64,000 bases of DNA from an uncultured delta proteobacterium (GTDB lineage Bacteria; Myxococcota_A; Polyangia; Haliangiales; Haliangiaceae). Positions 1,123 to 27,198 of this stretch are shown piece by piece. The stretch is taken from the NCBI GenBank assembly GCA_963848295.1, contig CAWKDB010000010.1:544001-608000 (forward strand), in the 5' to 3' direction. The position numbers and the translations under genes were made by a program. The notes beneath the pieces were generated by a model. It did no database searches. It saw only the letters and a list, made by a program, of their open reading frames with translations, and was not told where the DNA came from. Positions within the stretch are counted from its first letter, which is position 1, and each line of letters starts with the position of its first letter.

Positions 1123-1144
1123 GCATCGCAAGGTCGTGGGCGTG

Positions 1145-1933: not shown

Positions 1934-1950
1934 TTCTCGAGGAGGACGTC

Positions 1951-7273: not shown

Positions 7274-7555
7274 GGAGCCGTTGTATCGCGTTAGCGCCAC
7301 GTTCCCATGGCAGTTGCCAGACAACCGCGCGTTCAGGAGCGGTCCCTGATTCTATCAAGGAGAGGGCGGCCTCTCCGAGAGCCCGCTCCGCTGGCGTTCC
7401 TTTTAGCTGCTCCGCCAGCTCCGCCAGCGCCGAGGCGACATCGATGTCGGATCGCAGCCAGGATGGCCCCAACGAGTATCTTGCCGCTTCGCGGATCACC
7501 GCCAGCCAATTCGTGTCGTCGCCGTAGGTCCGGCCCAAATAGGTGACAGCGCCGC

Positions 7556-7952
7556 TCATTTGATCACCAGAGGCGAACGCGTGAGTTCGGAGAGCAGAAT
7601 TGGGCCCATCACGATCTCGCGTATCGGCACTTGGCCGTTCACCTGCGGGCTCGTTCTGCCATGCGGCTCGTTCCAATCTCGATTCAACACACCTTCTGGC
7701 GCCAAGGTAAGATCGAGTGCTGTTGGACGGAACGCTCCCTCATCGTGCCCAGGGGAGACAACAAGTTCCTCGGGGATCTGGGCGATCTGGTAGCCGTCCG
7801 CGTACTCCGGCCCAACAGCGAGCTGACTTCTCAGTTCCATCGGAGGGATCCCTTCGGGAACATCGTTGCCAGCAAAGTACCAGCCCGACGCACCAGGCGG
7901 CCAATCACCTACGACTGCACTGGCGTCCACGTCGGTCATTGGGTCGAAGCCG
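7556..7952 (-). pseudogene. Orphan toxin C-terminal tip
   Basis: FDPMTDV...GASGWYFAGNDVP...RPTALDL...GRT...REIVM matches the C-terminus of the 9155..13935 protein. It has no cognate start. Confidence 0.8.
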
Positions 7953-8408
7953 AGCCGACACGGCGCTGCCGGCTGCCGAGGCGATCCCGGCGGTCGCGAT
8001 CGTGATCGCGACCGCTTTGGCGAGCGAGACGAGCGCCTGAATGAGCTCGGCATCGTGAACCCTCTCGCGAACCTCATGGATGAAGTCGCGCAGATCCTCG
8101 TCGCCGGCGATCCGCGCGAACGCCTTGCGCGCCGCCGCGAGGCCGTACGCTCGGCCCTGCCACTCGCCCCAGCCGTCGGGGGCTCGCTCGTCGACCTGCA
8201 CCACCGGCGTGCCGTCGCGCTGCGCTTGGATCCACAACCTCTCGATCGAGAACAACCGATCCCGGACGTCCGAAACCAAGTCAGGCGGGAGCTTCAGCCC
8301 CGGGAACATGCGGTGGAAGTCCTCGCCGCTTCCGAACGCGTGGTCAGCGGCGGCCTGCAGCTCGAGCAGCGCGTCGCGCGCGGCGGTGATCCGCGATCGC
8401 AGCGCGAC
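7953..8408. repeat. 456-bp near-identical copy of 10841..11296 (mid-region of the large toxin gene)
   Basis: Direct comparison. About 3 mismatches seen, all near 8040..8058. Confidence 0.9.
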
Positions 8409-8415
8409 GTCTCGG

Positions 8416-8684: not shown

Positions 8685-9158
8685 TTACGGCCCGAGAAAC
8701 CTCTTTGCGGTCTCGCGAGTCAGGTCATCCGCGTCAGGCTTCGCGGCCTCGCGGTGCAAGAAATCAAGCACTCGTCGATCGTGGGGAAACTTGTTCGCAA
8801 GCTTCCACAGCACGGTGGCTACGTCGCGCGGGTTGCGGCCGAATCGCTCGGGCTCACGCTCCAACATCGCGAGGACCCGCGATGGCGCATTGGGAGCATC
8901 TTCGTACGGCAGAACTGATGCCATCTCGGCTTCTGCGCACTCACTCGTCTCGATCACGCTGAGAGCCGCGTCGGCGAGTCGTTCGCGCAAGCCCGTTCCG
9001 TGAAATGCCTCGCCCCAATCAGCCACCGCCCACACGTGCGGAAGATCTGACCGCAGCCATGACGGGCCGTTCCCCTTTACGGCATCACGTACCTCGGCGG
9101 CGAAATCGCTGCCTTCATCGAAGACTCGCCCACGATATTCGACGCGCGTCGCTGTCAC
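8685..9158 (-). CDS. Putative cytoplasmic immunity protein (157 aa)
   Basis: GTG start overlaps the toxin TGA. Shares GPSWLRSD, AALS-IE, LP-E and VLW-L with the IS-split paralog. No signal peptide. Confidence 0.75.
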   Translation of the reverse strand: MTATRVEYRGRVFDEGSDFAAEVRDAVKGNGPSWLRSDLPHVWAVADWGEAFHGTGLRERLADAALSVIETSECAEAEMASVLPYEDAPNAPSRVLAMLEREPERFGRNPRDVATVLWKLANKFPHDRRVLDFLHREAAKPDADDLTRETAKRFLGP

Positions 9159-12100
9159 GGCATCACCAAGGGCGCCCGCCTCGTGGCCGACAGTGGAAGA
9201 GGAGGCATGACGCACTCGCGAGCATCGGCTTGCCCTGGCTTGAGCGCGGCTGGATCCGTGCGACCTGCGTGCTCCTCGTGATCAGGATTTAGTTTGCCCT
9301 CAGGGGAGAGGGAAAGGTCGAGAGCGGTCGGCCGAGAAGCCCCACCCTCGGCATTCCGATCTGGCATGGCGAGTTCGGGCGGCAGTTCGACGATCTGGTA
9401 CCCGTCCTCGTACTCGGGGCCGACTGCGAGCCGCATACGCATTTCCGTAGGCGAAATGCCGGCCGGCACGTCGTTTCCAGCGAAGAACCAACCGGATGCA
9501 CCTGGCGGAAAATCACCGATCATCGCGTCGGAATTCACGTCGGCCATCGGATCAAACACCAAGCGGCCCGCCTTCACTAAGTCTACGAGCTTCGCAGCCA
9601 TTCCCCAAGCGTCTTTCGGGCTGGGCTTGACCGGCGGAATCTCGGACGAAAGCTTGCTTGCACGGACATAGAGGTCGGCCGTCGCGTTTGCGAGTAACCA
9701 CTTGAGAGACAATGCTCGGCGGAGCCCGCCCAGTTCCCGCTTCACGAAGTCAGCGCTTGGCATCTTGCGCCCTTTGCGCAAATACGCGTCGGGGTGCCTG
9801 AGCGTGACGTCCCTCATGAGGCGGTGTAAATCGACGACGGGCTGTTCGGACCTTGCAAACTCGACGGCGAGATCGGCGAGGAAGGCTACGCGCACATCGT
9901 TCGGTAGGTTCTTGTCCTCGTGAACCTCCCGCAACCTGCGGAGCCCTGCTTCGTTTCCTGGCGTCGCCGGTAACAAATCGCCAGCGTGCGGATCCCCGCG
10001 CAGCAGTGCCGCCCGTAGAGCCGCCGGTTCTAAGGCCGAGGTTCGCCCCGCTGCGTGAGCACCTTCCCGCGACGGTCTCTCCTTATGGGAGTCAGCATCG
10101 GCGGTCGCTCCGAGCAGCTCGCGCTCCTGCTCGATCAGCGCCTGGTTGCGCGCCTGCAGCTCCGCGCCCGCGTTCGGATCGGGCGCGGGGTCGGCGGCGA
10201 GGAGCGCGGCGTCGGCATAGAACGCGTCGCGCGCCGCGAACAGCGCCTTGGCGGCAGGCAGCTGGCCGCGCTTGGAGCCCTCGAGCGCGGCGCGGTGCTC
10301 GTGCCACGCGCGGACGCGGCCGTGGAAGAACTTGCCGACCGCGATCGCGGCGCCCTGCATCAGCGCCATCTCCGCGAACGACGACGACGCGTCGGCGCTC
10401 CCTCGGAACGTCGTGACCAGCCGGTGCGCGGCCCACTGCGAGGCGGCGCCGGTGACCTTGTCGAGCATCGCCGGGGTGCCCGCGAAGTCGGCAGACGCCA
10501 ACAGCGTGGCGCGCTCGCCCTCGGCGAGCCCCGGCAACGTCGCGAGCTGGCGCGCCTCGTTGCTCGCGATCGCCTGCGCCGAGCGCAACGGACGCAACAG
10601 CCCGCGGCTGAAGACGTCCATGAGCGCGTTTTCGAGCACGGCCGAGCCCGCGTCGCCGGGGCCGCCGGACTGGGCGAGCTGGACCGCGGCGTTGATCGAG
10701 GCATTGACCGCGATGTCCGACGTGAACGCTGCGGTCTCGACCGCGAACCGCGCGACCTGCTGGCCGGTGGTCGCCGTCACCGTGACACCGTCGACCGCAA
10801 CCGCCGCCCCCGCTGCCGCCTCTTCACCGCCGGCGATCGCAGCCGACACGGCGCTGCCGGCTGCCGAGGCGATCCCGGCGGTCGCGATCGTGATCGCGAC
10901 CGCTTTGGCGAGCGAGACGAGCGCCTGGATGATCTCGGCATCGTGGACCCTCTCGCGAACCTCATGGATGAAGTCGCGCAGATCCTCGTCGCCGGCGATC
11001 CGCGCGAACGCCTTGCGCGCCGCCGCGAGGCCGTACGCTCGGCCCTGCCACTCGCCCCAGCCGTCGGGGGCTCGCTCGTCGACCTGCACCACCGGCGTGC
11101 CGTCGCGCTGCGCTTGGATCCACAACCTCTCGATCGAGAACAACCGATCCCGGACGTCCGAAACCAAGTCAGGCGGGAGCTTCAGCCCCGGGAACATGCG
11201 GTGGAAGTCCTCGCCGCTTCCGAACGCGTGGTCAGCGGCGGCCTGCAGCTCGAGCAGCGCGTCGCGCGCGGCGGTGATCCGCGATCGCAGCGCGACCTCT
11301 CCGGCGGCAGTCGCCGCCTCGGATTGCAGGTACGGCGCGGTGCCCGCGTGGGTGCCGAGCAAGGCCTGTTGGCGCTCGTCGTGAATCGCGGCGTCCGCCT
11401 CGCTCGTTCCGACGGCCGAGTGTTCGCCGACTGCGATCAGATCGCGAGTGCCGCTGTGCAGCTCGACTTGTGCGGCGTCGAGCTCGTCGAGCTGTGCGGC
11501 TCGCGCCTGCTGGTCCAATGACTCGACGAGCTCGTTGCTCTGATCGCGCAGCTCGGAGACCGCGGCAGCTTGGACATAGGTCTGAAGCCGCGCGAGTAAC
11601 GGAACGCGCTCACCGACCCGCCACGGGTCGATCGCGCGGATCTGGCGAACCAGCGGGCCCACCTTCGCCGTGATCGTCCGGAGCTGGGTGATCTGAAACT
11701 GGAGGACCGGGAGCCACGCCGCGGCGTTGCTATCGCTCCACAGCGCGACCCGCTCGGCGCGCGCCGAGTACGCGGCCCCGAGCGCGCTGCCGACCCCGAG
11801 CGGCGTCACCTCCGCATCGAGCGCGTCGAGCACGACACCGACCGTGCGATCGAGCTCGATCAGGCGTTTCACGGTCGCCGGCTCACTCGCGGCTCCGGCG
11901 AACTGGCGCGTCGCCGCGTCGGCATTGCCGTACGCGGAGCCCACCATGGCGACGACTTGGGCGCCGGGGGACAGCTCGGTCGTCGCTACGGGCGGCATCC
12001 CGAGGAGTCGTCGTGCGGGCTGTTCGAGCTGTGCGTTCGCGGAGACGTTGTTCGTTCCCACGAACGCGTGCGGGTATTGCTCGGCGATCAGCGCTCGCGC

Positions 12101-13935
12101 CACCTCCGGATCGATCCGGAACGCGTCGCCTTCTTTGTGGACGGCGAACGCCATCGTCGACTTCGCCGAATCGCGCCATAGCGCTGCCGCGACCTCCTCG
12201 GCCGTCGCGGTGCTCGGAGTCGCTCGAACGAAGTTCCATAGCGCCGCGCTCTCGCGCCCGAGCCACTGCACGTCGACGTGGTGCAGCGCGGTCGGCGTCG
12301 TCTTCGCCGCCTCGACACCGTCATCCACGACGATGCCCGGCAACGCGAGCGCCCGCGCGACGAACGCATCCATCGGATGACTCGCGATCAGGTCGTCGCT
12401 GCTCGGCCGCTGCCCGGTTCGAGCCCATGCGTCGGCGAACCGCGGCCCCACGCGCGTGCGCAGCGAGACCACCGCCGCGCGCTCGACGAGCTGCGCGAGC
12501 GCCTCGGCGAACTCCGGCGCCCACGCGTCGATCTCGTGCGCGCGTTGCTTTTCTTTCTTCGCGTCGCGCGGGCCGATCGACGAGAGCTCGCGTCCTGTGA
12601 CGTAGCGGTCGAACCGGCCTTCGAGGTCGCCCGGCGAGACCAGCGCGGGCATGGTCTCGCCGTGCTCGAGTGAATCGCCGACGAGGCGGGCGAGGCGGCT
12701 CGAGAACGTCTGGTCGCCGCGGAGGCCGCCATAGCCGGCGCGGTCGAACGCCTCGTCGCCGCCTCTGGCCCAGCGCAGCCCCGGGCCGGGCGCGGGCCAC
12801 GCCGCGTCGGCGAGCTGCGACGCGATCGCCAGCGTCAACGGCGCACGGAACATCGTCAGGTACTCGATGAGCAGCGTCCGCGGCTGTTCGGTTGCGGATG
12901 CCGGCGACGGTGCACGCGACGCGCCGTCATGCACCATCACGGCGGCTGGGGACAGCAGACCGCCGAACATCGGCGCGCCGGTGCGCGCGACCGTGCCGTT
13001 GCGCAGTGCCTCGAGCAGGCGCTTGCGCGTGGCGTCGTCGAGTCGGGCGAACCGCGCGGCCACGTCATCGCCGGATCCCGGGCGATAGCGCGCGAGCCGG
13101 GCAGCCAACGCGCGGCGTTCGGAGCCGTCGAGATGCCGACAGCACCCCGTCGAGCCGGGCTTCGACCTCGACGCCGGCTTCGAGGATCCGGCGCAAGGTG
13201 TCGTCGGTCGTCACTGTGGCTGGCGTCGCTTGGTCGGGGAGCGACGCCGCGTCCCGGGGTGCGTGCCCCGCTCGCATCGCCTCGCGCTTGCGCGCGCCTC
13301 CGAGGTACGCGAGCACCGCATCGAATCGGCTCCTCGTGATCCGGACGTTGGGCGCGAGCGCGGACGCGATCGGATCGCCCGCGCGCGCGCGGTGCGGTCA
13401 ACCGGCGCGCCAACACCGAGCACTCGGCCGGAGACATCTGATCGAGCTCGGCCTTCAGTGCCGCCTCCTTCCGAGCCCAGCCGTCCCTCGCGCCGTCGAC
13501 CGGGGCTTCGAGCACCGCGACGAGCTCCGCCTCGCGCGACACCGGAGACCAGCCCAGCGGCGGTTCTGCCAGCTCGTTCGCCGAGGTCTCGTGCTGGACG
13601 AGCGCGCGCTCGGCGTCGTTCAGCTGTCGCCGGGACTCGTCCGACGCCGCGCTCGCCCCGGCGCGAGCGGTGACGAGCTCGTGCTTGGCTTCTGCAAGGC
13701 GCCGGTCGAGCGCCTGCTTGGCGGTGGCCCAATGCTTCGGGTCGTTCGCGGCGTGAGCTTTGCGGACCTCGTCGACGGCGAACCCGAGCGTCTCGATGTC
13801 GCGCTTCGCGGTGGCGACCGCATCGTCGGCTTGCTGCGCCGGGGTCCGCGCCGGCGCGCGATACGGGTCGGCCGAACCGACGCGCGGCGCATAGCTCAAC
13901 TCGTGGCTCTGACCCGGACCGGCGAGCTCGCTCAC
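9155..13935 (-). CDS. Large putative polymorphic toxin (~1590 aa), two frameshifts near 13385 and 13133
   Basis: Three ORF pieces join into a homolog of the 23531..26245 N-terminus. Ala/Gly-rich hydrophobic mid-region, variable C-terminal tip, coupled immunity-like gene. Confidence 0.7.
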
Positions 13936-13944
13936 GCGCCGGGG

Positions 13945-13970
13945 TATCGACACGTCGCCGCGAGAGTTGC
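13945..13970 (-). promoter_or_regulatory. Shared motif GCAAC-N15-TCGATA
   Basis: 9 nt upstream of GTG 13935. One of five copies. Confidence 0.65.
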
Positions 13971-14021
13971 GTCGACCCCCGTGGGTCGTCTTTCGCGCCT
14001 AAGTGACTGAAACTGCGACAC

Positions 14022-14048
14022 GCAACTCTCGGCGCGCCGCGGCCGATA
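14022..14048 (+). promoter_or_regulatory. Shared motif GCAAC-N16-CCGATA
   Basis: 9 nt upstream of ATG 14058. Confidence 0.6.
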
Positions 14049-14057
14049 GCGCCGCCC

Positions 14058-15224
14058 ATGACGAACCAACTGCTCTCTCTAATGACGGTCTTCGTGGCGG
14101 CTTGCGGTGCGGTCGTGGCACCGGCCCACGGCTCGGGCGCGGAGCCTGACGCGGGCTCGGCCGGTCGCGACTCGAACGCCGGCGATGGCAACTCGACCGA
14201 CGCCGGTCCGTGCGAGGTCGACAGCGACTGCACCGCGTCCGGCGTGTGCATGCCCGATGGGTCGTGCGCCGCGGCGTCGACCGTGGCCTACGCGAGCCCG
14301 ATCGGTGCCGACGCGACGAGCTGCACGATGGCCGACAAGTGCTCGCTCGCGACCGCCTCGGCGACGAGCGCATCGGTCATCCACCTCGATCCGGGCACGT
14401 ATACGACGCCGGTCACGCTCGCGAACACGGTCACGCTGGTCGGCCGTGGCGCGACGGTCGAGAACAGCGGGAATGGCGCGACGATCGGCGTGAAGACGAA
14501 CGCGAACGTCACGATCGATTACCTCGAGATCGACGGCGGGACCGGCAAACTCGGCAACGGTCTCTACTGCAGCGAGGGCTCGCTCGTGTTGAATCAAGTC
14601 ACCGTGCAGCACAGCGGTGCCCAGGGTATCTACTCGTTCTTGTGCGCGCTGTCCGTCCAACAGTCGACGATCGAGGACAACGCGGGGTTCGGGATCGAGA
14701 CCGGCGGCGGCGTGACGACGATCAGCCGCTCGACGATCGCGTCGAACCAGCTCGGCGGCATCGGCATGACGTCGGCCGGGCACTTCGACATCACGAACAC
14801 GTTCGTGACCGGCAACGGCGGCGCCGAGTCGACCGCCGACACCGGCGGCGTCTATCTCGACCCCGATGCGTCGCCGAACAACCGGTTCGAGCTCAACACC
14901 GTGGTCGGCAACGTCGTGGGCGACGGCACGACGGGCGGCATCCGCTGCCTCGCGCCGTTCACGGCGGCGAACAACATCATCGTCGGCAACCTCAAGCTCG
15001 GCGAGACCGCGGACTCGGCCGGTTCGTGCACGCACCTGACGTCGCTGGTCGGCGAATCGCAGTCCGCGGTGGGCTTCAAGTCGCTGACCGACTTCCACCT
15101 CTCGGCGGCAAGCCCGGCGATCGACGAGGCCACCACACCGTCCACCGTGGTGACCGACTTCGACGGCGACCCTCGGCCGCAAGGGGCCGCGAAAGACATC
15201 GGCGCGGACGAGTACAAGCCGTAA
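14058..15224 (+). CDS. Lipoprotein, beta-helix protein with choice-of-anchor Q-like C-terminus
   Basis: Lipobox FVAAC, CTASGVCMPDGSC shared with the paralogs, DGDPRPQGAAKDIGADEYKP. Confidence 0.85.
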   Translation: MTNQLLSLMTVFVAACGAVVAPAHGSGAEPDAGSAGRDSNAGDGNSTDAGPCEVDSDCTASGVCMPDGSCAAASTVAYASPIGADATSCTMADKCSLATASATSASVIHLDPGTYTTPVTLANTVTLVGRGATVENSGNGATIGVKTNANVTIDYLEIDGGTGKLGNGLYCSEGSLVLNQVTVQHSGAQGIYSFLCALSVQQSTIEDNAGFGIETGGGVTTISRSTIASNQLGGIGMTSAGHFDITNTFVTGNGGAESTADTGGVYLDPDASPNNRFELNTVVGNVVGDGTTGGIRCLAPFTAANNIIVGNLKLGETADSAGSCTHLTSLVGESQSAVGFKSLTDFHLSAASPAIDEATTPSTVVTDFDGDPRPQGAAKDIGADEYKP

Positions 15225-15236
15225 TTCGGTTAGAAT

Positions 15237-16718
15237 ATGCGACGGGGCATGCGTGTCAGGATCGCGCTCGTAGTCTTCGCCGCCACCGTGCGCGCGGTGG
15301 GCGCCGCACCGGGCGGCATCGTGCTCGAATCGTACACGGGCGACCGCCCGGACGATGCGACGCGCCTGTTGTCGCCGCTGCTCGACGAGCTCGCGAAGCG
15401 CGGCGTCGTCGGCGGCTACGATGTCGTCGGCCGGAAATACGAAGCGGAGGTGTCGCGCTCGACGTTGTCGATCGAAGGGCTAACCCCGGATTTCGCGGAT
15501 CGAATCGAACGCGGCCACAAGGCGTGGATCGAAGGCAGGTTCGACGAGGCGGTGTCGCTGCTGTCGCCGATGATCGATGCCGCTCACGCGAACCCCGGTG
15601 CCTTCGCGCAGAACCAGCCGCTGCGCGAGCGGTTGCTCAAGGGCCTGATCGCGCTCGCGCTGTCGCAGCAACGCATGGGCGATCCGAGCTCGTCGCGCAC
15701 GACGTTCGGCGAGATCCTGCGCAGCTTCCCGGACACCCAGCTGTCCCGCGCGACCTACGGCCCCGATGCGTACAACCAGTTCGAAGAGGTGCGGCGCGCC
15801 GCCACCGCGCGCGGCCGGCTGACCGTGAAGGTGCCGGATGAATCGGGCGTCGTGTTCATCAACGAGCACTTCGAGAACGTGGGCACGACGTCGAAGGCGG
15901 ATCTCGTGCCCGGCGAGTATCGCGTCTACGTCCAGCTCGGCAAGCAGCTGACGCGCAGCCACACCGTGATCGTGCGCGGAAATCAAGAGACCACGCTCGC
16001 GTTCCAGCCGGCCTACGACGCCGCGATCCGGACCACGCCGCACTGGACCGGCTTGGCGTTCGCGACCCCGGCGGAGCGCGAGCGCGACGAATCGGCGTTC
16101 GCCGCGAAGTTCGCGCGAGAGATCGGCGCCGGCTCGGTGATCGTGGTCGGCTACGATCAGGTGCGCGGTCGCGCCGCGGTCGTCGGATCGATCGTCAATC
16201 TCGAGACCGGTCGCGAGATCCGGCGGGCGAGCCTGGCGCTCGAGCCCGAGCCGTCGGTCGAACGCGTGCGCGCGCTCGCGCGCTTTCTCGCCGGCGATCA
16301 GGCGACGACTGGCATCGACGTCCAGCTCGGTGGCGATGTGCGGGTCCCCGCGGCCAAGGCGAAGTCAGGAGCAGCGGCGGCGGAGCCTGGTGACGGCGAC
16401 GACAGCCCGGCGACCCACGAGGGGCCGTGGGGCGGGTGGAAGTACGTCACCGGTGGGCTCGCGGTCGGGGCACTCGCGACCGGCGTCACGCTGTTCGCGC
16501 TCGACGGCCAGTGCTCGGTCGACGTCAGCGGCAACCTGCCCTGTCCGATGAAGTACGACAATCATCCGTTCGATTACATCGCGGTCGGTGCCGGCGTCGC
16601 GCTCGCGGGCGTCAGCGTCTATCTGTTCCTGCACCATCCGAACCACGCGCCTTCGCACACGGCGTACGTCGTGCCCACGCGCGACGGCGCGTTCGTCGGC
16701 TACGCCGCGCGGTTCTGA
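15237..16718 (+). CDS. Exported protein with a helical region and PEGA-like domain
   Basis: Signal peptide-like N-terminus, [12 protein letters not shown]...[10 protein letters not shown], two C-terminal hydrophobic segments, ends GYAARF. Confidence 0.7.
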
Positions 16719-16734
16719 CCATGCACCGCAAGCC

Positions 16735-17216
16735 ATGACCACGCTCGGCGACTGGCTCGCACGGGCGCCGTTCTCGCTCGCGATGTCGAGCGGGTTCTTT
16801 TCGTTCTACGCGCACACCGGGATGTTGACGTCGTTAACGTCGCGCGGGCTCGCACCGACGCTCGTCGCCGGCTCGAGCGCCGGGGCTGCGTGCCGGTGAT
16901 GTTCCATCCGGTGCGGATCGGCCGGCGCCTGTACTGGGACGGCGGCATCCTCGATCGGCCGGGCCTGGCCGGCGTGCCGCCCGGCGAGCGCGTGTTGATG
17001 CATCACATCGCGAGCAAGTCGCCGTGGCGCGCCGAGCTCCCGATCCCGCGGCGCGCCGGCATGGTCACGCTCGTCGTCGACGGCTTGCCGCGCTCCGGGC
17101 CGTTCAAGCTCGACGAAGGCCGCCGCGCGCTCGCGCTCGCCCGCGAGGCGACGCAGCGCGCTCTCGATACCGCGATCCCGGCGGACGGCATCGTGCGGCT
17201 CGGCGCAGGCGCCTAG
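16735..17216 (+). pseudogene. Patatin-like phospholipase with a 271-bp internal deletion
   Basis: GSSAG and DGG motifs. The segment equal to 22854..23124 of the second copy is missing at 16886/16887, causing a frameshift. Confidence 0.85.
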
Positions 17217-19180
17217 GCCGCGATCTTCCCGATCGCTTCGTACTCGATCCTAGCGGCGTACTCGAGATGGCACGATGAGATCGGCTCGCCGACGTCCGCC
17301 GCCATGAAAGCAGCGCGCAGCGCGGCGTTGCGAATGTATCCGCCGGACATCACGAACCGCCGGGCCAGCGACGGCAGATCCAAGTCGCGATCGACGGGCG
17401 CCAACGCCGGGATCACCACGCGCCACAGTCGAGCGCGTTCGGCTTCATCGGGAAGCTCGAACCGGAGGTGAAACGACAACCGCCGCTGAAACGCGGCATC
17501 GATCCCGCTCTCGTGGTTCGAGGTCAGCAGGCAGATCCCCGAGAATGACTCGAGCCGCTGAAGCAAGTAGTTCGTCTCGAGATTCGCGTAGCGGTCGTTG
17601 CTCGATTTCACCTCCGTGCGTTTGCCGAACAACGCGTCGGCTTCATCGAACAGTAGGATCGCGTGGCCGGCCTCGGCGACGTCGAACAACTCCGAGAGCC
17701 GGGCCTCGGTCTCGCCGATCCATTTCGAGACGACCTTCGACAGGTCGACCTGGTAGAGCTCGAGCCCGAGCTTGCGCGCGATCAGCGCGGCCACCATCGT
17801 CTTGCCGGTGCCCGGCGGGCCTGAAAACAGCGCCGTCACACCGAGACCGCGGCCGAGCTTCGCGCCGAACCCCCACTGCTCGTAAACGACGCCGCGTCGC
17901 TGGACGCGCGCGCACAGCTCGGCGATCTGCGCGAGCTGCGCTTCGGGCAGCACGATGTCGGCCCACACTTGCGTCGTATCGATCCGGCGCGCGAGATGAC
18001 CCAACCGGTCGTCCAGCGCGCTGCGGACGCCTGCTTCGATATGGGTCGGTTGGAGTGGCTGTCCCGCGGCGACCTGGCGAGCTATCACGGCGGCGCGGCA
18101 GACCAGACCGGCTGCGATCGGATAGCGGTTCGCGAGAAGCTCGGCATCGCCTTCGCTAGCTCCAGGGAGCACGCGGTGCCAGAGCGCGGCGCGTTGCACC
18201 GCGGTCGGCGGCAAGATCTCGACCACGGTGGCAGGCCGCCCCCAGCGCGGCGTCACCGGCAGTCGATTACACGTCGCGAGGATCGGCGAGTCGAGGTCGG
18301 CGGCGAACATCCGTCCGAGCAACTCGAAGCGCGAGGCGTCGGCGTCGACGATCAACGCGTCCAGGTTGCGGACCAACGGAGCGCGCCGTTGCAACTTGCA
18401 CTCGCGGACCAGCGCGCACAGTTGATCGCGGAACACTGGCAGCTCTCGAGACAAGCGCTTCGCGTCGATCTCGAGCAGCTCGAGGTTCGCGTCATGCGCG
18501 AGCGAAGTGAGGATCGTCGCGCGCCCGGTCGCGGCGGGCCCGAGCGCGATCACGACCGCGTCGGCCGGTCTGAGCGCTGCTCGCAGCTTGGTCGCCGACG
18601 ACTCGGCGACGGCGAGCTCTGCCATCCGCTTTGACGGCGCGGGGATTCGCGCGACCTCGGCGAGCGCCGGATCGATCGCGTCGTCGCCGTGCAGTAGCGC
18701 GAGCACACGCCGCGCGATCGCCCACGTCCACCGGCTCTCGTGCAGCTCGGCGGAACCGCCGTCGCTGCGTTCGATCAGCCCGAGCCGGCGCAGCGTGCCG
18801 GTCGCGGAAAGCTCGGACAGGGCGAGCCGACTCGGCCGATCGCCGTAGACGAACGCACGAATGAAATCGAGGGTCGGATCGACAGTTGCGGCGCCGGCGC
18901 GTGCGAAGAGCGCACGCGCTGCGCTATCGACCGCCAGCGCGGCCAGCAACCATACGACCTCGAGCTCGGTCGCCGTCAGGTCGAGACACGCGCGCAGCGT
19001 GTTCGTGCCGCATCGCGACGGGGCCGCGACACGCGTGGCGATCCGCACTTGCGTCGCGAGCAGTGCCTGAACGAGTGCGTCCGGCGGCGTCTCGGCGCGC
19101 AGGAAGTGACCGCGCAGCGCGAGGACTTGGCGGGCATTGTCGCAACGGTCGGCGAGCTCGTCGAGGAAGCCATCGGTCAT
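17213..19180 (-). CDS. AAA+ ATPase, eCIS Afp15/Pvc15-like
   Basis: [71 protein letters not shown]. Degenerate first AAA domain. Confidence 0.85.
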
Positions 19181-19188
19181 GGCTCTGG

Positions 19189-19214
19189 TATCGACCACGC
19201 CTGGCTACGGTTGC
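19189..19214 (-). promoter_or_regulatory. Shared motif GCAAC-N15-TCGATA
   Basis: 8 nt upstream of ATG 19180. Overlaps the stop of the upstream gene. Confidence 0.65.
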
Positions 19215-19972
19215 GTGGCGGCTTTGTCCTCGTAGACGCAGCGAAATCCGTGAGAGCCTCGACTCGATGGCACTGCGAGGTCGAGTCTCGGCTGGTCGAT
19301 AATCACCGACACGGGCTCGATCCGGTCCGGCTTCGCATGATTAGGGTCAGGCGTGTGTGAGCCGACCGCGCAGTCGAGGTCGCGCGTGAACTCGTGGACT
19401 AGGCCGCCCAACATCTCGAACTCCACGCCCTCCGGGCCTAGGTACCTATAGCTTTCGCCTGGGCGGAGCGTCGGAGTCCTTGCTACCTCATCAAAGAGGA
19501 ACTTCTTCCCTCGTATGCCGCGTGCAGCGCGCTGCCACTCATCGAGCGTCGGTAGTTTTCCTCCGACCCAAGCGCAGTAATCGGTCGCTTTGTCGAGTTC
19601 CACTTCCACCAGCTCGTCGGTGCACCGGTCGTAGTCTCGTACCCACCGACAACGATGGGCCTCGACACACGCGTTGAACGACGCGCAGCTGGTCGGCCGG
19701 CGATCGATCGCGTAAGCGTCGACATGACGATGCGGGGAGTCCGTCTGCGACGGGCTTGAGCTAGTCGGAGTAAACGTCCCGGGTATGCAGAACGGCTGTA
19801 ACCCAAGGAATTCACCGCCGGGTATTCCGACGGCGTCGCGCGCCGGTGGCGCTGGTAGTGGCGTCGAGATCACTGCATCCTTTACGGTTGGCGGCGGCGG
19901 TTCCTCTCGCGAGCCATGGCAGCCCCAGGCGACTAGTCCGAGAGCGCTCGCGAGCCAGACTGACGTTCTCAC
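19205..19972 (-). CDS. FGE-sulfatase-fold lipoprotein, putative immunity protein
   Basis: Lipobox VAWGC, IPGGEF, YCAWVGGKLPTLDEWQRAARG, HGFRCV. GTGA overlap with the upstream effector-like gene. Confidence 0.75.
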   Translation of the reverse strand: MRTSVWLASALGLVAWGCHGSREEPPPPTVKDAVISTPLPAPPARDAVGIPGGEFLGLQPFCIPGTFTPTSSSPSQTDSPHRHVDAYAIDRRPTSCASFNACVEAHRCRWVRDYDRCTDELVEVELDKATDYCAWVGGKLPTLDEWQRAARGIRGKKFLFDEVARTPTLRPGESYRYLGPEGVEFEMLGGLVHEFTRDLDCAVGSHTPDPNHAKPDRIEPVSVIIDQPRLDLAVPSSRGSHGFRCVYEDKAATQP

Positions 19973-21642
19973 GTTCCCTCCGTCGCCGACTGATCGTCCG
20001 TTGAAACCGATACTCCCCAATTCGAGAGCGTTCGCGACGTCACGATGTCGGTCATCTCACGCGCAGCGAGATCCGCTTGTGATGCATCATCGATCGGTTC
20101 GTGATCTGAGCTTACGAGGGCGAGCCGCTTGAAGTCGCCGGTCACGGTCAGTCGACCAGCTTCGTCGCGCGTAATGATTGTGGGGTTCGGCTCGTTCCAA
20201 CCGACCGAGATCTTCAGGGGGATGCGCGCGACGCGAAGGTCGAGATCACCTAAGTGATCAGCAACCGCTTGCGCAACGCCAACAACGCGCACATCGTTGA
20301 CTCGTGGATTACCGCTCTCGATGTTGACCCTGATCTCGAGCACACCCGCGATCGATTTCCCGGCAGCCCTGGATAGGTCGGTCACTTCGGTCTCTGATGG
20401 TGCCTGATTGCCGAGAGTAGTTGCGCCCGCTGACATTCGTGCCTTGAACGCGAGCCACGCCCCTGCGGACGCGGCTAACTGCGCGGCCTCGGCGGCCTCA
20501 GCCGACTGAGAGAACGCGTGGTCGACCGCCTCCATCATGGCGACAGCAACTTCCGGCTTCGAATAGAGGAGAAGAAAGTGACGGGTGTGATGATCTTTGG
20601 CAATGTGCGCGTTGGCCGTTTCCATCTTGTCGAGGGTGTCCAACTGCGCCTTTAGGAACGCAACGCTCGTGTTCGAAGTGTTGTCGGCCGCACCGTGAAC
20701 TGCCTCGAGAGACGCGGTCGCCGCTTGCTTCAGTGCATCGCGGACTCCGCCAGAGGTCATCTTTTCCAGCGCAATCGAGCCCCCCTCCTCAACCGATTTA
20801 ACCAACGCCGATGCAACCGCACCTCCGACGTACGTCGCAAGCACGGCGGTCCCCAAGGTGATTGCAGCTTTCGCGATATCCCACCAAACCTCCCGCTCAA
20901 CGCGTGGTGCCTTGTAGGTTGCGATCTCCGCCTGCAACACGTTGGCCCCGGTCCGCTGGTGTCGAGCAAGGTCGGCGGCGGAAATCGCCGCAGCGTCATA
21001 AGCGTCGTCGAATCGCCTTGCGGCGTCTGCCGGTGGACCGTCCTTTCTCGAGTTCGCGTGAAACGCCGCGAGCTCCGCGTTCGCGGTCGCCTCTTCGGCC
21101 TGCTCGGCTTTCTGATCGTGCGCGGCTGCCTCGCGCTCCGCTCGCGTCGGGCTCGGCACGTCCGCAAGCTCGCGCCCACCGCCGACGAGCGACACGCGGC
21201 CCGTTTCGACGTGGCCATCGGGCCAGGTCGCAGTGAGCCACAGGTCGCCGTTGAACGTCTGGTGCTTGAAATCAGCGCCGCGCGGCGAGAACCGCACGCG
21301 CACCGGGTTCGCGAGCTGTTCGCGGAGGTCGTCGGCCGACATCGAGCCCACTTGCACGAGCCACGGAAGGCACGACTCGACGCTGAACGGCGTCCCCTCG
21401 GCGATCGTCGCGATGAGCTTCGCCGGACCGCACATTCGATTGAACGGCGCTGGCAAGTCGAACACGTGGCTGCTGCCGAACACCTGTTCGCCGACGTCGA
21501 GTAACGGCGGAAGCGGCGACAATCGGCTGTCGCCGCCGCCCATTCCGTTCGTCACGAGATTCGGATCGACGGTGGCGTGCGACGTCCGCGTTGTTGGAAC
21601 GTCGGGGCGCTTCGGCTTTGCTGCGCGGTCGGGTCCTGACAT
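19969..21642 (-). CDS. Putative effector with an Ig-like domain and hydrophobic hairpin
   Basis: LLDVGEQVFG...VRVRFSPR...VSLVGGG beta-sandwich pattern, hydrophobic IAKAAITLGTAVLATYVGGAVASAL, coupled lipoprotein gene. Confidence 0.55.
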   Translation of the reverse strand: MSGPDRAAKPKRPDVPTTRTSHATVDPNLVTNGMGGGDSRLSPLPPLLDVGEQVFGSSHVFDLPAPFNRMCGPAKLIATIAEGTPFSVESCLPWLVQVGSMSADDLREQLANPVRVRFSPRGADFKHQTFNGDLWLTATWPDGHVETGRVSLVGGGRELADVPSPTRAEREAAAHDQKAEQAEEATANAELAAFHANSRKDGPPADAARRFDDAYDAAAISAADLARHQRTGANVLQAEIATYKAPRVEREVWWDIAKAAITLGTAVLATYVGGAVASALVKSVEEGGSIALEKMTSGGVRDALKQAATASLEAVHGAADNTSNTSVAFLKAQLDTLDKMETANAHIAKDHHTRHFLLLYSKPEVAVAMMEAVDHAFSQSAEAAEAAQLAASAGAWLAFKARMSAGATTLGNQAPSETEVTDLSRAAGKSIAGVLEIRVNIESGNPRVNDVRVVGVAQAVADHLGDLDLRVARIPLKISVGWNEPNPTIITRDEAGRLTVTGDFKRLALVSSDHEPIDDASQADLAAREMTDIVTSRTLSNWGVSVSTDDQSATEGT

Positions 21643-21651
21643 GCCAGCCGT

Positions 21652-21677
21652 TATCGACCACCGCGCGCCGCGGTTGC
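21652..21677 (-). promoter_or_regulatory. Shared motif GCAAC-N15-TCGATA
   Basis: 9 nt upstream of ATG 21642. Confidence 0.65.
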
Positions 21678-21699
21678 GCGGCGCCGCAACGTCGCGCAA

Positions 21700-22719
21700 C
21701 TACGCCGGCTCGAGCTCGGCGCGCAGCGCCGCGACGACCCGGGCCGGCGCCTTGAACCGCACGCGCGTGCCATCGTCGTGATGCTCTTCCGCGAGCACGG
21801 TCGCGCGCTCGTGGATCGAGTGGATCACGCGCTGCGAAGCCCACGGCACGTCGAGCTCGGTCTCTTCGAGCGCGCCGGCGAATTGTTCGATCATCTTGTC
21901 GCGCAGCTTGGCGACGTCGGCCGGCGTCTTCGCCGACAGCTGGAGCGCGCCGGGATAGCGCTCGGCGAGCGCGGCGCGGCCGGCGGCGTCGACGCGATCG
22001 ATCTTGTTGAGCACGAGCCAGGTCGGCACCTCGTCGCGCGCCGATCTCGCCGAGCACCTCGCGCGTGACCGCGAGCTGGTCCGCGTGCGCGGGATCCGAC
22101 GCGTCGACGACGTGGAGGAGCAAGTCCGCGTCGAGCGCCTCGTCGAGCGTCGAGCGAAACGACGCGACGAGATCGTGCGGCAGCTTCTTGATGAAGCCGA
22201 CGGTGTCGGTGACGAGGATCGGCGGCTCGGTCGGCGGCTGGAGCCGGCGCACGGTCGTGTCGAGGGTCGCGAACAGCTTGTCGGCGACGTAGACGTCGGT
22301 CGCTGGTGAGCGCGCGCATCAGCGACGACTTGCCGGCGTTCGTGTAGCCGACGAGCGCGACGGTCGGCAGCATCGCTGCGGCGGTCGCGCGCGGATGTTC
22401 GCGCCGCCTTCGATCGTCGCGAGCTCGTCGCTGCAGCTCGGCGATCCGGTCGCGGATTCCGCCGGCGATCGAGCTCGAGCGCGGTCTCGCCGGCGCCCTT
22501 GCCGCCGATGCCGCCGCGCTCGCGATCGCCGCCGCCGCCGCTCTCGCGCAGCCGCGGCGCGAGGTACTTGAGGCGCGCGATCTCGACCTGGAGGCGCGCC
22601 TCGCGGCTCTTGGCGTGGCGGTGGAAGATCTCGACGATCACCGACGTGCGATCGAGGACCTCGGCGCCGGTCGCCTTCTCGAGGTTGCGCTGCTGGGTCG
22701 GCGACAGCTCGTGATCGAC
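21700..22719 (-). pseudogene. hflX: 5'-truncated, frameshifted second copy of hflX
   Basis: 3' end matches 27199 onward. The upstream part has substitutions (VIVEIFHRHAKS vs VILEIFQRHAKT) and several indels. Confidence 0.85.
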
Positions 22720-22736
22720 CTCGAGACCGGTCGCGA

Positions 22737-23454
22737 GTTCTCGCTCGCGATGTCGAGCGGGTTCTTTTCGTTCTACGCGCACACCGGGATGTTGACGTCG
22801 TTAACGTCGCGCGGGCTCGCACCGACGCTCGTCGCCGGCTCGAGCGCCGGGGCGTTGGTCGGCGGTGCCTGGGCAGCGGGGCTCGAGCCCGCGGCGCTCG
22901 CCGAGCTGTTGTTCGCGCTGCGCCGCGACGACTTCTGGGATCCGGCGCTCGGCGCGGGCTTACTCGCGGGCCGGCGGTTCGATGCGCTGCTGCGCGCGAT
23001 CCTGCCGGTGACCTCGATGCGAGCGTGTCGCGTGCCGGTCAAGATCAGCGTGTTCGATATCGTGGCACGCCGCACCACGGTGATCGACGATGGCGAGCTG
23101 CCGGCGACGATCCGCGCCTCGTGCTGCGTGCCGGTGATGTTCCATCCGGTGCGGATCGGCCGGCGCCTGTACTGGGACGGCGGCATCCTCGATCGGCCGG
23201 GCCTGGCCGGCGTGCCGCCCGGCGAGCGCGTGTTGATGCATCACATCGCGAGCAAGTCGCCGTGGCGCGCCGAGCTCCCGATCCCGCGGCGCGCCGGCAT
23301 GGTCACGCTCGTCGTCGACGGCTTGCCGCGCTCCGGGCCGTTCAAGCTCGACGAAGGCCGCCGCGCGCTCGCGCTCGCCCGCGAGGCGACGCAGCGCGCT
23401 CTCGATACCGCGATCCCGGCGGACGGCATCGTGCGGCTCGGCGCAGGCGCCTAA
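22737..23454 (+). pseudogene. Patatin-like phospholipase, second copy lacking the first ~12 codons
   Basis: Matches the first copy from 16770. GSSAG, RASCCVP and DGG are present, but the native start is missing. Confidence 0.8.
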
Positions 23455-23496
23455 CTTCGCGTCGTCGCGTGCGAATCGGCGCTTCGCCAGCGCCGC

Positions 23497-23522
23497 GCAA
23501 CTTTCACGACCTCGTGCCGATA
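23497..23522 (+). promoter_or_regulatory. Shared motif GCAAC-N15-CCGATA
   Basis: 8 nt upstream of ATG 23531. Confidence 0.65.
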
Positions 23523-23530
23523 GCAGCGGC

Positions 23531-26245
23531 ATGGGCGAATTCGCGGACCCGGGTCGTACGTATGACACGAGCTACGCGCCGCGCTCGGCGATGACCGACG
23601 CGTATCAGCCGCCCGTTCGCGCACAGGCGGATCCAGCCAACGACACGATCGTTTCGGCCAGGCGCGACATCGATGCGATACCAGGCGCGATCGAGTTGGT
23701 CCGCCGAGCGCACGCGGCGAACGACCCGAAGGCTTGGGTCGCGGCGAAACAGGCGCTCGATCGACGAATCGCCGACGCGCAGCGCGTGCTCGCGAGTGCG
23801 CGTACGCGCGTGGCGACGGCTTCGCCCGAGTCGGTGCGCGGCTTGAGCGAAGCCGACCAGATGTTGAGCGCGCTCGAGGATGCGGCCGGCGCGCTGGCGG
23901 AGGCGCCGCTCGGTTGGGTCCAGGTCTCACGCGAGCAGGAGATCCTCGCGATCCTCGACGCTCCGATGAATAGCGCGCACGACGGCTGGGCGCAGAAGGA
24001 GGCGCCGCTCGAGGCCGCGTTCGATCAGCTCTCGCCTGCGGAGTCGGCGGTGATTTCGCGGCGGCTCAAAGAGCAGCACGCAGGCGATCCGGTCGCGGCG
24101 GCGCTCGCCCCGAACTTGCGGATCACGCGGTCGCGGTTCGACGCGTTGCTTGCTCATCTCGCCGGCGCTCGAAAGCGGCAAGCTATGCAGGCCGTGGGCG
24201 GTTCGGACATCGAGCCTTCCAATTCGAAGCCCGAGACGGCAAGCGCCGGCGCGGCGGCGGCTTCGACGAACGACCTCCTCCGCCAGGCGCTGGAGGTTGG
24301 CGGCGCTGGTAGAGAGACGCAGCTCGAGGCCGTGTTCGCAGCACTCGATGGCACCGAGCGCCGCGCTCTCGTGTCGCGACTCGAGAGCTACCGACCGGGT
24401 TCAGGCGATGACGTCGCGGCGCGGTTCGTTCGGCTTGACGATGTCACGCGCCAACGCCTCCTTGCAGCGCTGCGCGACGGCAAGCCCGCAACGCTCAAGG
24501 ACGTCGCGCCGACGTTCGGGTCTCCGGTTCACAAGAAGAGCGACGATCGGCGCGAGATGCTCGCGTACTTTGTCGAGCGGATGACCGAGCAGCGGGAGAC
24601 GCTCGAGCGACACAACGAGAAGACGGATCCGCTGTTCGTCGTAGCTCGGAGCCACCTCGACTTCTCGACGCGAGCGGTGGGCTCGGAGACCCGGATGACG
24701 GTGGCGATCCAGAATGCTGAAGGTCGCCGGCTCGCGCTCGATCAGCTGATTCCGGTCGCGAACGACCCTTTCTCGGAGCTCACCGTCGAGCCGGCGAGCA
24801 GCCTCGTGTTCGATCCGGGCGAGGTTCGCGAGATCACCATCGCCTACCGCCCTGCCCGGGCGCTGCGCACGACGCAGACATTTCGCCTGATCGCGAACGG
24901 CGTGCCCGTCGGCCCGGAGGCGGACATCACGGTGAGCGGCGAAGGGAGCAATCTGTTCGAGGGTGTCGACGGTGTGCGCATCCAAGCACAGCGCGACGAG
25001 GCAGCGCTGGCTCGCGGCGACCGCTTGGAGGACCGGCTCTCATACCCACGCGCGTCGGCGAGGGAGCGGCTCGAGGCGTGGTCCAACGCCGCGAAGGAGC
25101 TGAACGCCTCGATCGCGGAGTGGACCGTGCGCAACTGGACCGTGTTCTACGGCAAGACAGGTCGCGATGCCGGTGTCGTCGACATGCACGCGGTCGCAGG
25201 CGTGATCGAGAAGGTCGTAAAAAAGGGCGCGAAGTCTGGTTCGAAGTCCGCGATCAAAGCGTTCGCGCAGGTAGCAAGAAGCGAAGCAAGCGCCGGGCTG
25301 GTGGCAGGTGCATCGTCCGAGGCTGCGCAGCTCGCTCGAGGCGCGATGTACGCCGAGAACATCGTCGTGGGGCTTGTCGTCGATAAGGCGATCGACATCT
25401 TCGGCAGCTGGGTGCTCGACAAGCTCGGCGTCGCGCCGCCGACGGCCGACGAACGCGAGCTCGCCGCGAGCGAGCACGTCGCGAGCGAGAGCATCGACAA
25501 GAGCGTCGAGATCGGCGACGCCCGGCTTCGCGCGAATGCCGTAGTCGACGACACGGATTCGGCGGCGGCGCTGCGTATCGAGCAAGCCTCGTCCGCCAAC
25601 GAGCTTGAACAGTGGATCGCTTGGGCGCAGGATCAGAGCGCGGACCTGCCGAAGCCCGTGGACAAGAACGACCTGACGCTCTCGAATCACCTGCTCGCCG
25701 AGTGGGTGATGCAGCACGCAGAAACGCCGAGCTCGCCGATCGCTTCGACGAACAAGGCTGCGTGGAAGCAGGCCAAGGCCGAGCTTCACGAGTCGGGGGA
25801 GCTCGAGACGCTCGAGCGCAGCGATCTGTTTGTCCACCAATGCCTGCACGAGTGGAGCTCGCTCGGGTTGGACGGTGCCGAAGAAGCGGCGGCTTCCCTG
25901 TCGAACCGCGTCGCGGAGATCGCCAGACATCCGTGGAGGTTGGATGAAGTCGACGGCAGTGCGGTCCAGCGTTGGAACCTGGCCGACGGAGTCTATTTCC
26001 ACCGCAGCGTCGATCCGAAGCGAACCGCCGACACGCTCGGGGCCGGCGAACCGCTACTCAGCGAGACTGGTCGCGGTGAGGCGGTGTTCTCCAATGAGTT
26101 TTCGTTACGCTGCGGAGTCTCGCTCGTGCGTGAAGACGGCGCGATCTACGTCCGGGTGTTTAGCTACGAGCTCGAGTCCAGGTATCTAGGTACCCGCTCC
26201 GATCGCTATCCGTATATCGGTCGCTCGGTAGGACAAACCTCGTGA
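23531..26245 (+). CDS. Putative polymorphic effector: shared N-terminal domain, ASH/choice-of-anchor D-like Ig domain, helical C-terminus
   Basis: N-terminal ~320 aa homologous to the 13935 gene. LDFSTRAVG...ITIAYRP...ITVSGEG Ig pattern. Coupled lipoprotein downstream. Confidence 0.7.
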   Translation: MGEFADPGRTYDTSYAPRSAMTDAYQPPVRAQADPANDTIVSARRDIDAIPGAIELVRRAHAANDPKAWVAAKQALDRRIADAQRVLASARTRVATASPESVRGLSEADQMLSALEDAAGALAEAPLGWVQVSREQEILAILDAPMNSAHDGWAQKEAPLEAAFDQLSPAESAVISRRLKEQHAGDPVAAALAPNLRITRSRFDALLAHLAGARKRQAMQAVGGSDIEPSNSKPETASAGAAAASTNDLLRQALEVGGAGRETQLEAVFAALDGTERRALVSRLESYRPGSGDDVAARFVRLDDVTRQRLLAALRDGKPATLKDVAPTFGSPVHKKSDDRREMLAYFVERMTEQRETLERHNEKTDPLFVVARSHLDFSTRAVGSETRMTVAIQNAEGRRLALDQLIPVANDPFSELTVEPASSLVFDPGEVREITIAYRPARALRTTQTFRLIANGVPVGPEADITVSGEGSNLFEGVDGVRIQAQRDEAALARGDRLEDRLSYPRASARERLEAWSNAAKELNASIAEWTVRNWTVFYGKTGRDAGVVDMHAVAGVIEKVVKKGAKSGSKSAIKAFAQVARSEASAGLVAGASSEAAQLARGAMYAENIVVGLVVDKAIDIFGSWVLDKLGVAPPTADERELAASEHVASESIDKSVEIGDARLRANAVVDDTDSAAALRIEQASSANELEQWIAWAQDQSADLPKPVDKNDLTLSNHLLAEWVMQHAETPSSPIASTNKAAWKQAKAELHESGELETLERSDLFVHQCLHEWSSLGLDGAEEAAASLSNRVAEIARHPWRLDEVDGSAVQRWNLADGVYFHRSVDPKRTADTLGAGEPLLSETGRGEAVFSNEFSLRCGVSLVREDGAIYVRVFSYELESRYLGTRSDRYPYIGRSVGQTS

Positions 26246-27198
26246 GGTCCGCCGCTGTTCTCGGCATCCTGATCGCCATCGGATGCTCGCATTCGGACGG
26301 GCGCGCGGCGCGACATCACGCGTTCGAAGTGCGTCACGCGCGTATTCAGCGCTTGGTGACGAGTTGTAGTCCGGCAGATCAGGCCTCGCTTGTCCTGATG
26401 GCCACCGGTCGGTTCGACTGGGGCGACGGCGTCGAGGAGGCTCCCGCGGAAACGACCCTCGACGACCCGCGAGTCGAACCCGATCAGCTGGCGGTGCGAT
26501 GTCACGCTACGCTCGTCCTCGCTAGTACGCCGATGACGACCTTGGGGCGGAACATTGGCGCGCTCGAAAAACGAGCGCAGGTGCTGTCAGACTCCAAGGT
26601 GCTCGAGGGGCTTCACGTGATGCTCCATGACGTAACGACCGGCTGTACCGGCAACTACGGTCGCGACGCGGTCGCACGGACGTTGTTCCCCAAGGATGCC
26701 GTCGAGGACGTCATCCTCATGAATCCGATCGTCCCCACACCGACCGGGTATGAAGACCTCGAGGCTGAATGGGCTCCGTTCCGCGAGGAGATCGAGCGCT
26801 ATCATCCGAGCCCTCGCGTTCGGCGTTTAGATGAGTCCGTCGCCGATCTTTCTCCGGCGTCATTCCAGAAGGTACTCGAGATGCTCGATCCCGCATATGT
26901 GTGGAACGATGGCAACCCTCCACCGACCGACGAAGAGCGCGCCGAGATCCAGAAACACGGCCTCGTCGCCATGCACTGGGCCTTGACGCTCGCAGAGGAT
27001 GCGGCGCCGCCCGACTTCGAGCCGGGTCGTACGTACTATGTACCCAACGACTGCGAGATCGCACTCTACAAAGCGATCAAGACCGGAGCCCTAGGTGACG
27101 CCATGAGGACCCGCACCAATTCGCGTCGGGACGAGGTCAGCGATCACATCGACGCGTACCTCGGCCTCTTGCACGCGTTCCGAAACCCGAGCCCGTAA
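26242..27198 (+). CDS. Lipoprotein, putative immunity protein
   Basis: Lipobox IAIGC. GTGA overlap with the upstream gene. Confidence 0.65.
   Translation: MRSAAVLGILIAIGCSHSDGRAARHHAFEVRHARIQRLVTSCSPADQASLVLMATGRFDWGDGVEEAPAETTLDDPRVEPDQLAVRCHATLVLASTPMTTLGRNIGALEKRAQVLSDSKVLEGLHVMLHDVTTGCTGNYGRDAVARTLFPKDAVEDVILMNPIVPTPTGYEDLEAEWAPFREEIERYHPSPRVRRLDESVADLSPASFQKVLEMLDPAYVWNDGNPPPTDEERAEIQKHGLVAMHWALTLAEDAAPPDFEPGRTYYVPNDCEIALYKAIKTGALGDAMRTRTNSRRDEVSDHIDAYLGLLHAFRNPSP

Follow-up and report, generated by a model that had tools for sequence, protein, structure and literature searches.

We analyzed a 64,000-nt stretch of the genome of an uncultured delta proteobacterium (the window; coordinates are positions within it unless a contig is named). 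It encodes two large proteins, A (minus strand, starting at 13935) and B (plus strand, starting at 23531), which share an N-terminal domain that includes a helical repeat of about 95 aa. We propose that A and B are likely to be polymorphic toxins whose delivery relies on an extracellular contractile injection system (eCIS), of the type of the Photorhabdus virulence cassettes (PVC), and that the repeat is likely to be an adaptor that brings cargo to a loading ATPase similar to Afp15. We put the probability of this reading, which is based on sequence comparisons, at roughly 60%. Its parts are firmer: we have little doubt that the family consists of polymorphic toxins (with predicted toxicity of the tips and rescue by the partner genes), and delivery of these proteins by an eCIS is quite probable. 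Below, G, L, P, and C label genomes, loci, proteins, and contigs; the genome with the window is G000 and is 85% complete.

B is an intact open reading frame (ORF) of 904 aa (23531..26245). Its N-terminal domain is followed by an Ig-like domain (aa 372-471) and a helical body with a single hydrophobic stretch (aa 611-629). Residues 1-179 of B are 51% identical (E = 3e-53) to the frame that starts with GTG at 13935 on the minus strand, and residues 184-271 and 272-330 are 52% and 69% identical to copy A. Beyond residue ~330, the two proteins are unrelated. Each is followed by a different small gene with a GTGA overlap: a 157-aa gene for A (8685..9158, minus strand, overlap at 9158-9155) and a 318-aa gene for B (26242..27198, plus strand, overlap at 26242-26245). 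Both are predicted to be immunity genes. By eye, B's partner has a lipoprotein-like N-terminus, while the start of A's partner has no such features and no signal peptide that we could see. We found no signal peptide, RHS, or PAAR in A or B. An earlier reading of the window, made from the sequence only, had reported the shared N-terminus, the unrelated remainders, the two overlapping small genes, and, for the domain, the lack of these three features, and we agree on all of these.

The sequence-only reading had treated the gene at 13935 as one gene and did not mention that copy A runs in three reading frames, with two breaks near the gene's start. The first piece (13935-13399) matches B 1-179 and is followed by a frame change; the second (13382-13134), in another frame, matches B 184-271; and the third (13132-9155) includes the end of the second repeat, a long body, a hydrophobic stretch, and a conserved tip of ~170 aa (9158-9661). 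P0027 is an intact homolog (1619 aa) with A's domain, body, and type of tip. Because atpB in the window (45058-45835) also shifts reading frame, and splits over two ORFs were seen at 4 of 23 conserved loci that we tested, the breaks in A are likelier to be assembly errors than decay. Short public contigs did not bridge the breaks, and read data do not settle the cause.

Across the family, the N-terminal domain is about 220-320 aa long and is mostly predicted to be folded. It has a leader of ~30 aa, a three-helix bundle, and then one or two copies of the Arg-rich repeat. In B, the leader and the predicted bundle (aa 33-120) lie within aa 1-123 (23531..23899), repeat 1 is a predicted small helical domain at aa 124-220 (23900..24190), and repeat 2 is a partial copy at aa 258-316 (24302..24478) that is matched by the profile of repeat 1 (E = 3.5e-12). 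The sequence-only reading had described two repeats of ~60 aa; the internal repeat is real, and just the second, partial copy has that length. The predicted structure, which was built from a 67-row alignment, has a mean predicted local distance difference test (pLDDT) score of 90, with a flexible linker between repeats 1 and 2. The leader is hydrophilic and of low confidence (pLDDT 56-58 for the first ~25 aa).

The domain and its repeat do not belong to any family in Pfam (E ≤ 0.05), NCBIfam, PADLOC, or PHROGs, and the domain had no match among PDB sequences or the features of the ESM Atlas. Foldseek with parts of the domain, a comparison that had been suggested earlier, returned nothing at E ≤ 0.001. 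In fold searches, the bundle had generic matches to spectrin- or plakin-like proteins (best Z 10.6, root-mean-square deviation 2.0, 91 residues aligned), and the best hit for the repeat was the C-terminal part of TetR (Z 7.0, root-mean-square deviation 3.0, 82 aligned). For these predicted models, the searches support neither assignment to a known fold nor a claim of a new one. Annexin repeats occur in DUF4157 toxins of Haliangium (PMC3894181), and we considered if our repeat might be an annexin, which was unsupported: annexin was not listed in the fold searches and there was no Pfam match. We found no paper that clearly describes the module, although supplements that lie outside the texts we consulted (such as the additional files of PMC3482391) could list it without a name.

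Homologs of A and B do not have constant C-termini. Among 44 domain-bearing proteins of at least 800 aa, two of which came from a search with the tip, the last 200 residues form 28 clusters, a number that proteins cut by contig ends may inflate. The tips that could be named include zeta toxin/XopAJ (L109, E = 5e-88), Tox-GHH, APH-kinase-like, PRTase-CE, and adenosine deaminase. We tabulated 29 loci (three that had been fetched twice were counted once), and 17 of them have a complete ORF. Within these 17, all three pairs of related tips have related partners, and there is no other pair of related partners. This supports the polymorphic layout, with constant N-terminus, variable tip, and coupled small gene, that the sequence-only reading had recognized. 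(One tip-partner pair, L040, is from an unpublished genome, G010; it enters this count and the count of 27 loci below, to which another unpublished genome, G066, may also contribute a row. Both genomes are included in the tallies of the repeat, the ATPase, and the tube gene across the genus.) The downstream gene overlaps by 4 nt in 14 of the 17 cases, which we did not use as evidence: our script favored starts near -4, and frame breaks seem to be present at L026 and L088.

Rhs, CDI, and MafB systems have orphan toxin-immunity modules, in which a downstream cassette combines a near-identical internal segment with a different tip and a partner of its own. The window has a similar cassette downstream of A (8413-7175), which the sequence-only reading overlooked. 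It includes a 461-bp copy (7953..8413, minus strand) that is 99.1% identical to 10841-11301 within A and is likely a recombination handle; an orphan tip (7556..7957, minus strand) that is 59% identical to A's tip; and an orphan partner gene (7175..7559, minus strand) that has an ATGA overlap and is 35% identical to A's partner. The orphan partner is truncated by an IS21-family element with istA, istB, and inverted ends (4807..7174, plus strand). Similar repeats downstream of the toxin at L108 are a second case of an orphan module. These loci differ from the Rhs, CDI, and MafB systems in that there are no RHS, FhaB, or MafB domains and delivery would be by another route.

A's tip had no match in Pfam or PDB. 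In the ESM Atlas, it resembles a TNT cluster (score 0.91, 151 features in common), which we treat as a lead: there is a weak hint that the tip might degrade NAD as TNT does. Separately, the tips at L023:5762-7261, L027:1136-2200, and L102 resemble FAD-binding oxidoreductases by eye (a GxG motif), and their partners are of the STM4015/LRR or TIGR02996 type. These would be unusual toxins.

Several lines of evidence link the family to an eCIS. First, 12 of the 51 matches of at least 400 aa have a DUF4157 (PF13699) that starts no more than ~160 aa beyond the domain (one of the 51, P0100, is spurious); the other 39 are without DUF4157. Second, A's tip matches 13 proteins, 9 of which contain PF13699, and 7 of those 9 are short effectors (527-588 aa) without the new domain. 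A's body also weakly matches two DUF4157 proteins of G000. Third, G000 has an eCIS structural locus (contig C2, ~901-933 kb) with sheath, tube, baseplate, spike, and DUF4157 genes. This locus does not encode an Afp15-like ATPase; instead, eight paralogs are dispersed elsewhere in the genome, and one of them is in the window, between A and B (17213..19198, minus strand). It combines a winged-helix domain (PF22977) with an AAA domain and is 34% identical (over 75%) to the ATPase of pADAP that is encoded between the tape measure and DUF4255 and that we take to be Afp15. The sequence-only reading had set DUF4157 aside, and this holds for the domain by itself, which matches no library family, but many homologs do carry DUF4157 directly behind it. 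Similarly, its suggestion of an undescribed delivery or loading tag is plausible, although the tag would be tied to the known PVC/eCIS pathway. The links through DUF4157, the shared tip, and the Afp15-like ATPase speak against a free-standing new class of toxins.

The region around the structural locus (G000:C2:900000-938000) also has FHA-domain, PASTA, and pentapeptide-repeat genes and two sheath genes. Beyond this locus, G000 has lone gp19-like tube genes at C10:72025-72882 and C10:1532847-1533224. At four loci (L064, L068, L110, and G046:C355), a repeat gene or the start of a toxin has a CIS_tube gene (PF19266) at a distance of 0.2-1.4 kb, away from a full structural locus as far as we could see. 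And at G000:C10:4140262-4157308, two DUF4157 domains occur in one protein of 2200 aa; downstream of its gene are three genes of similar size (~490 aa) and short ORFs that resemble orphan modules, and then an Afp15-like ATPase.

The repeat is also encoded on its own, as a free protein of 100-180 aa. We took 40 loci with the repeat in a short frame from the list of matches, non-randomly and before seeing their neighbors. Within the stretch fetched around each, an Afp15-like ATPase was near 31 of these 40, at 95-5687 bp. For comparison, an ATPase is found in 1.5% of 20,000 random 13-kb windows of G000, although this background weakens as a yardstick in that it comes from G000 alone while the number of ATPases in relatives ranges from 1 to at least 14, and related genomes are not independent. 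With a narrower limit of ±1.5 kb, an ATPase was found at 9 of 29 repeat loci. Among the nine loci without an ATPase are several that run into the end of a contig, two with a gene from a cargo family, and one that is the broken start of a toxin. Among the 31 loci with an ATPase, the repeat gene is upstream on the same strand in 20, divergent in 9, downstream in 1, and convergent in 1.

These genes often form a cassette of the repeat, a cargo candidate of 400-680 aa, a lipoprotein-like gene, and the ATPase. The 400-680-aa proteins are from at least four unrelated families. The window has such a cassette between A and B (21642-17213), which had also been overlooked: a cargo candidate of ~557 aa with a hydrophobic segment (19969..21642, minus strand), from a family that adjoins free repeat genes in relatives; a lipoprotein-like gene with an FGE-sulfatase domain (19205..19972, minus strand) that overlaps the cargo's stop and is predicted to confer immunity; and the ATPase. 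The window's cassette has no repeat gene of its own, and a second cassette in G000 (C10, ~3.50 Mb) has a divergent one. We also asked if B's body might belong to the family of the cassette cargo, but hhalign gave a probability of 1%, and we claim no homology.

The repeat is also fused to the ATPase itself, at its N-terminus in L034 and at its C-terminus in L095, L097, L114, and P0126. The large proteins are mostly away from ATPase genes: an ATPase was seen at 1 of 27 of their loci (within the stretch that was fetched; many of the contigs are short). In a tree of the repeat (79 rows and 96 columns, with L040 and L093 excluded), 29 first repeats from toxins form one clade (100/98) amid the free copies and apart from the ATPase-fused ones. 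Because these toxin repeats form one clade, the tree fits a single event in which a free repeat gene was fused to a toxin lineage.

The domain has a narrow distribution. A search of 1.84 billion representative sequences gave 103 matches, including B. The repeat is in 61 of 90 genomes of one genus of Kofleriaceae, and elsewhere in the order it was found in 1 of 56 genomes; in a draw of 300 genomes from the phylum, the domain was in two, both from the genus. The genus is a narrow lineage that is known here from metagenome-assembled genomes. Each of its genomes carries from 1 to at least 14 Afp15-like ATPases, and a CIS tube gene is present in 76 of 80. ATPases that are closer to the window's than E = 1e-127 were found in 48 of 57 repeat-positive and 4 of 23 repeat-negative genomes of the genus, where the threshold was picked after viewing the data, the count was by hand, and kin are not independent. 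These sequence comparisons suggest that the repeat travels with one subclade of the ATPase.

How might the system operate? The genome has a structural locus without an ATPase, eight ATPase paralogs elsewhere, and a repeat that is free in cassettes, joined to the ATPase in fusions, and part of large proteins that are mostly away from ATPase genes. It is the presence of the repeat in free form, on the ATPase, and on cargo that leads us to read it as an adaptor that docks on the ATPase. Cassette cargo would be docked in trans and the large toxins in cis, and the ATPase would then unfold the cargo into the tube, probably beginning at the hydrophilic 30-aa leader. Recombination with orphan modules would swap the tips. 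Each partner gene would neutralize its tip; A's partner would act in the cytoplasm and B's at the envelope. More tentatively, this might be a distributed loading network, in which one shared particle is served by many dispersed Afp15-like ATPases and a folded adaptor of ~95 aa assigns each cargo to an ATPase. In such a network, the adaptor might act in trans in four-gene cassettes, as a fusion to the ATPase, or within giant toxins.

Besides the limits of the background for the ATPase's proximity, several observations weigh against our proposal. DUF4157 (PF13699) is absent from both A and B, so neither is a DUF4157 toxin in the strict sense. B's body has no homolog that we could find and no recognizable toxin domain, and most of the tips, including A's, do not belong to any family. 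G000 has two free repeat genes, and the copy at C10:2620497 has no ATPase nearby. Of 80 genomes from the genus, 23 have ATPases and no match to the repeat, which implies that the repeat is not generally needed. Finally, most of the domain is predicted to be folded, while the known eCIS signals are disordered and unconserved, so it may be that the leader alone matters for loading.

This last point leads to the best of the alternatives, which we think is doubtful: the proteins would be eCIS toxins with the leader alone as the loading signal, and the repeat would be a regulator of the ATPase, a chaperone against aggregation, or a nucleic-acid-binding regulator of the cassette, which was fused to the toxins once. 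The leader is hydrophilic and of low confidence, like the eCIS signals described in the parts of PMC11297309 that we consulted. An Arg-rich repeat whose free gene is divergent from the ATPase in 9 of 31 cases would suit a regulator, and one fusion would explain the single clade of 29 toxin repeats. On the other hand, the repeat has been fused to both ends of the ATPase and has been retained, often in duplicate, on diverged toxins, which suggests a role at the level of proteins and cargo, and no DNA-binding family or fold was matched.

It is a good deal less likely that the toxins are exported by another route (contact-dependent delivery, outer-membrane exchange, a type VI secretion system, or lysis) and that their links to an eCIS are inherited baggage. 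This would account for the lack of DUF4157 in A and B and for the rarity of ATPase genes near the large genes (1/27), and proteins of 1600-2300 aa would probably be large for cargo in a tube. However, AlgoCIS loads a cargo of 1228 aa, according to the portion of its description that we consulted (10.64898/2026.05.27.728243). Also, we did not find a type VI sheath gene (VipB/TssC, PF05943) in G000, which is 85% complete; A and B lack signal peptides, RHS, and PAAR; and DUF4157 is right behind the domain in 12 homologs.

The least likely alternative is a conflict system that acts inside the cell, against phages or by cell death, with the repeat coupling effectors to an NTPase as an effector-associated domain (EAD) would. 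Against it, the lipoprotein-like partners, the orphan tips, and DUF4157 suggest export, toxin repeats are not paired in the tree with free repeats from the same genome, and a weak match of the ATPase to IetA models is confined to the AAA core. (It scores 96 bits, far below the cut-off of 510, so we do not consider this an IetAS system; the neighbors that we scanned had no PADLOC match.) Pfam holds EAD models, and the repeat had no consistent match to Pfam at E ≤ 0.05. There is a likeness, in that EADs are described as small helical domains that occur alone, on NTPases, and on effectors and are proposed to be coupling adaptors (PMC7159879, in the sections that we consulted), and our repeat is likewise on both an NTPase (L034, L095, L097, L114, and P0126) and toxin N-termini. 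Our repeat differs from EADs in its different NTPase, its context of export, its toxin copies that form one clade instead of pairing by genome, and the lack of any sequence match that we found.

If these proteins are eCIS cargo, then they have much in common with the DUF4157 toxins of the PVC secretion system, which, in the parts of the reports that we consulted (PMC3482391; PMC8213781), have a constant N-terminal part, variable tips with common modules, long linkers, a CDC48-related AAA+ ATPase, and a phage-tail structural locus. In contrast to those systems, the proteins described here have an additional conserved domain of 220-320 aa, predicted to be folded, that is ahead of DUF4157 or is present where DUF4157 is missing; almost all complete genes are coupled to a partner; and there are orphan modules and ATPases that are multiplied and dispersed with the cargo. 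The closest precedent for the layout is AlgoCIS, whose cargo has an N-terminal domain, optionally DUF4157, and a variable C-terminus, and whose loading requires the N-terminal domain and the Alg15 ATPase but not DUF4157 (10.64898/2026.05.27.728243, in the portion consulted). By analogy, the new domain would occupy the slot of the N-terminal domain of AlgoCIS cargo. Both the AlgoCIS cargo with its ATPase (Cgo1/Cgo2-Alg15) and the PVC effectors with theirs (Pnf/Pdp1-Pvc15) resemble our proteins in the layout of the cargo and in having a homologous type of ATPase (10.64898/2026.05.27.728243; PMC11495950; see also PMC12210884). They differ in that their loading sequences are disordered and system-specific, and the portions of these reports that we consulted describe no separate adaptor gene or fusion to the ATPase. 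More broadly, eCIS loading signals are described there as disordered and unconserved, and the mechanism of cargo selection is called unclear (10.64898/2026.05.27.728243; PMC11495950; PMC11297309).

A conserved folded module that is found free, on the ATPase, and on cargo offers a defined pair for studying binding and loading, and, if the more tentative loading network exists, it would be the first structured and transferable address tag for eCIS cargo. These bacteria also have an expanded family of Afp15-like ATPases and a set of toxins, with many unnamed tips and partners, that a search for DUF4157 would largely miss (39 of 51 lack it).

The region around the cassette and B includes an apparent duplication. 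Within 16770-28212, a unit of patatin (plus strand), cassette, and hflX (minus strand) occurs twice in tandem. The two hflX copies (21695-22719 and 27194-28212) are 96.5% identical, with six single-base indels, and the patatin remnants at 16770-17215 match parts of 22737-23453 with 100% identity. Each copy of patatin and hflX surrounds a different cargo cassette. This might be either a hot spot for insertions or two strain variants that were assembled in tandem. The window also has three related beta-helix genes (PF13229), at 19-3231 and 14058-15224, which are 70-80% identical in parts.

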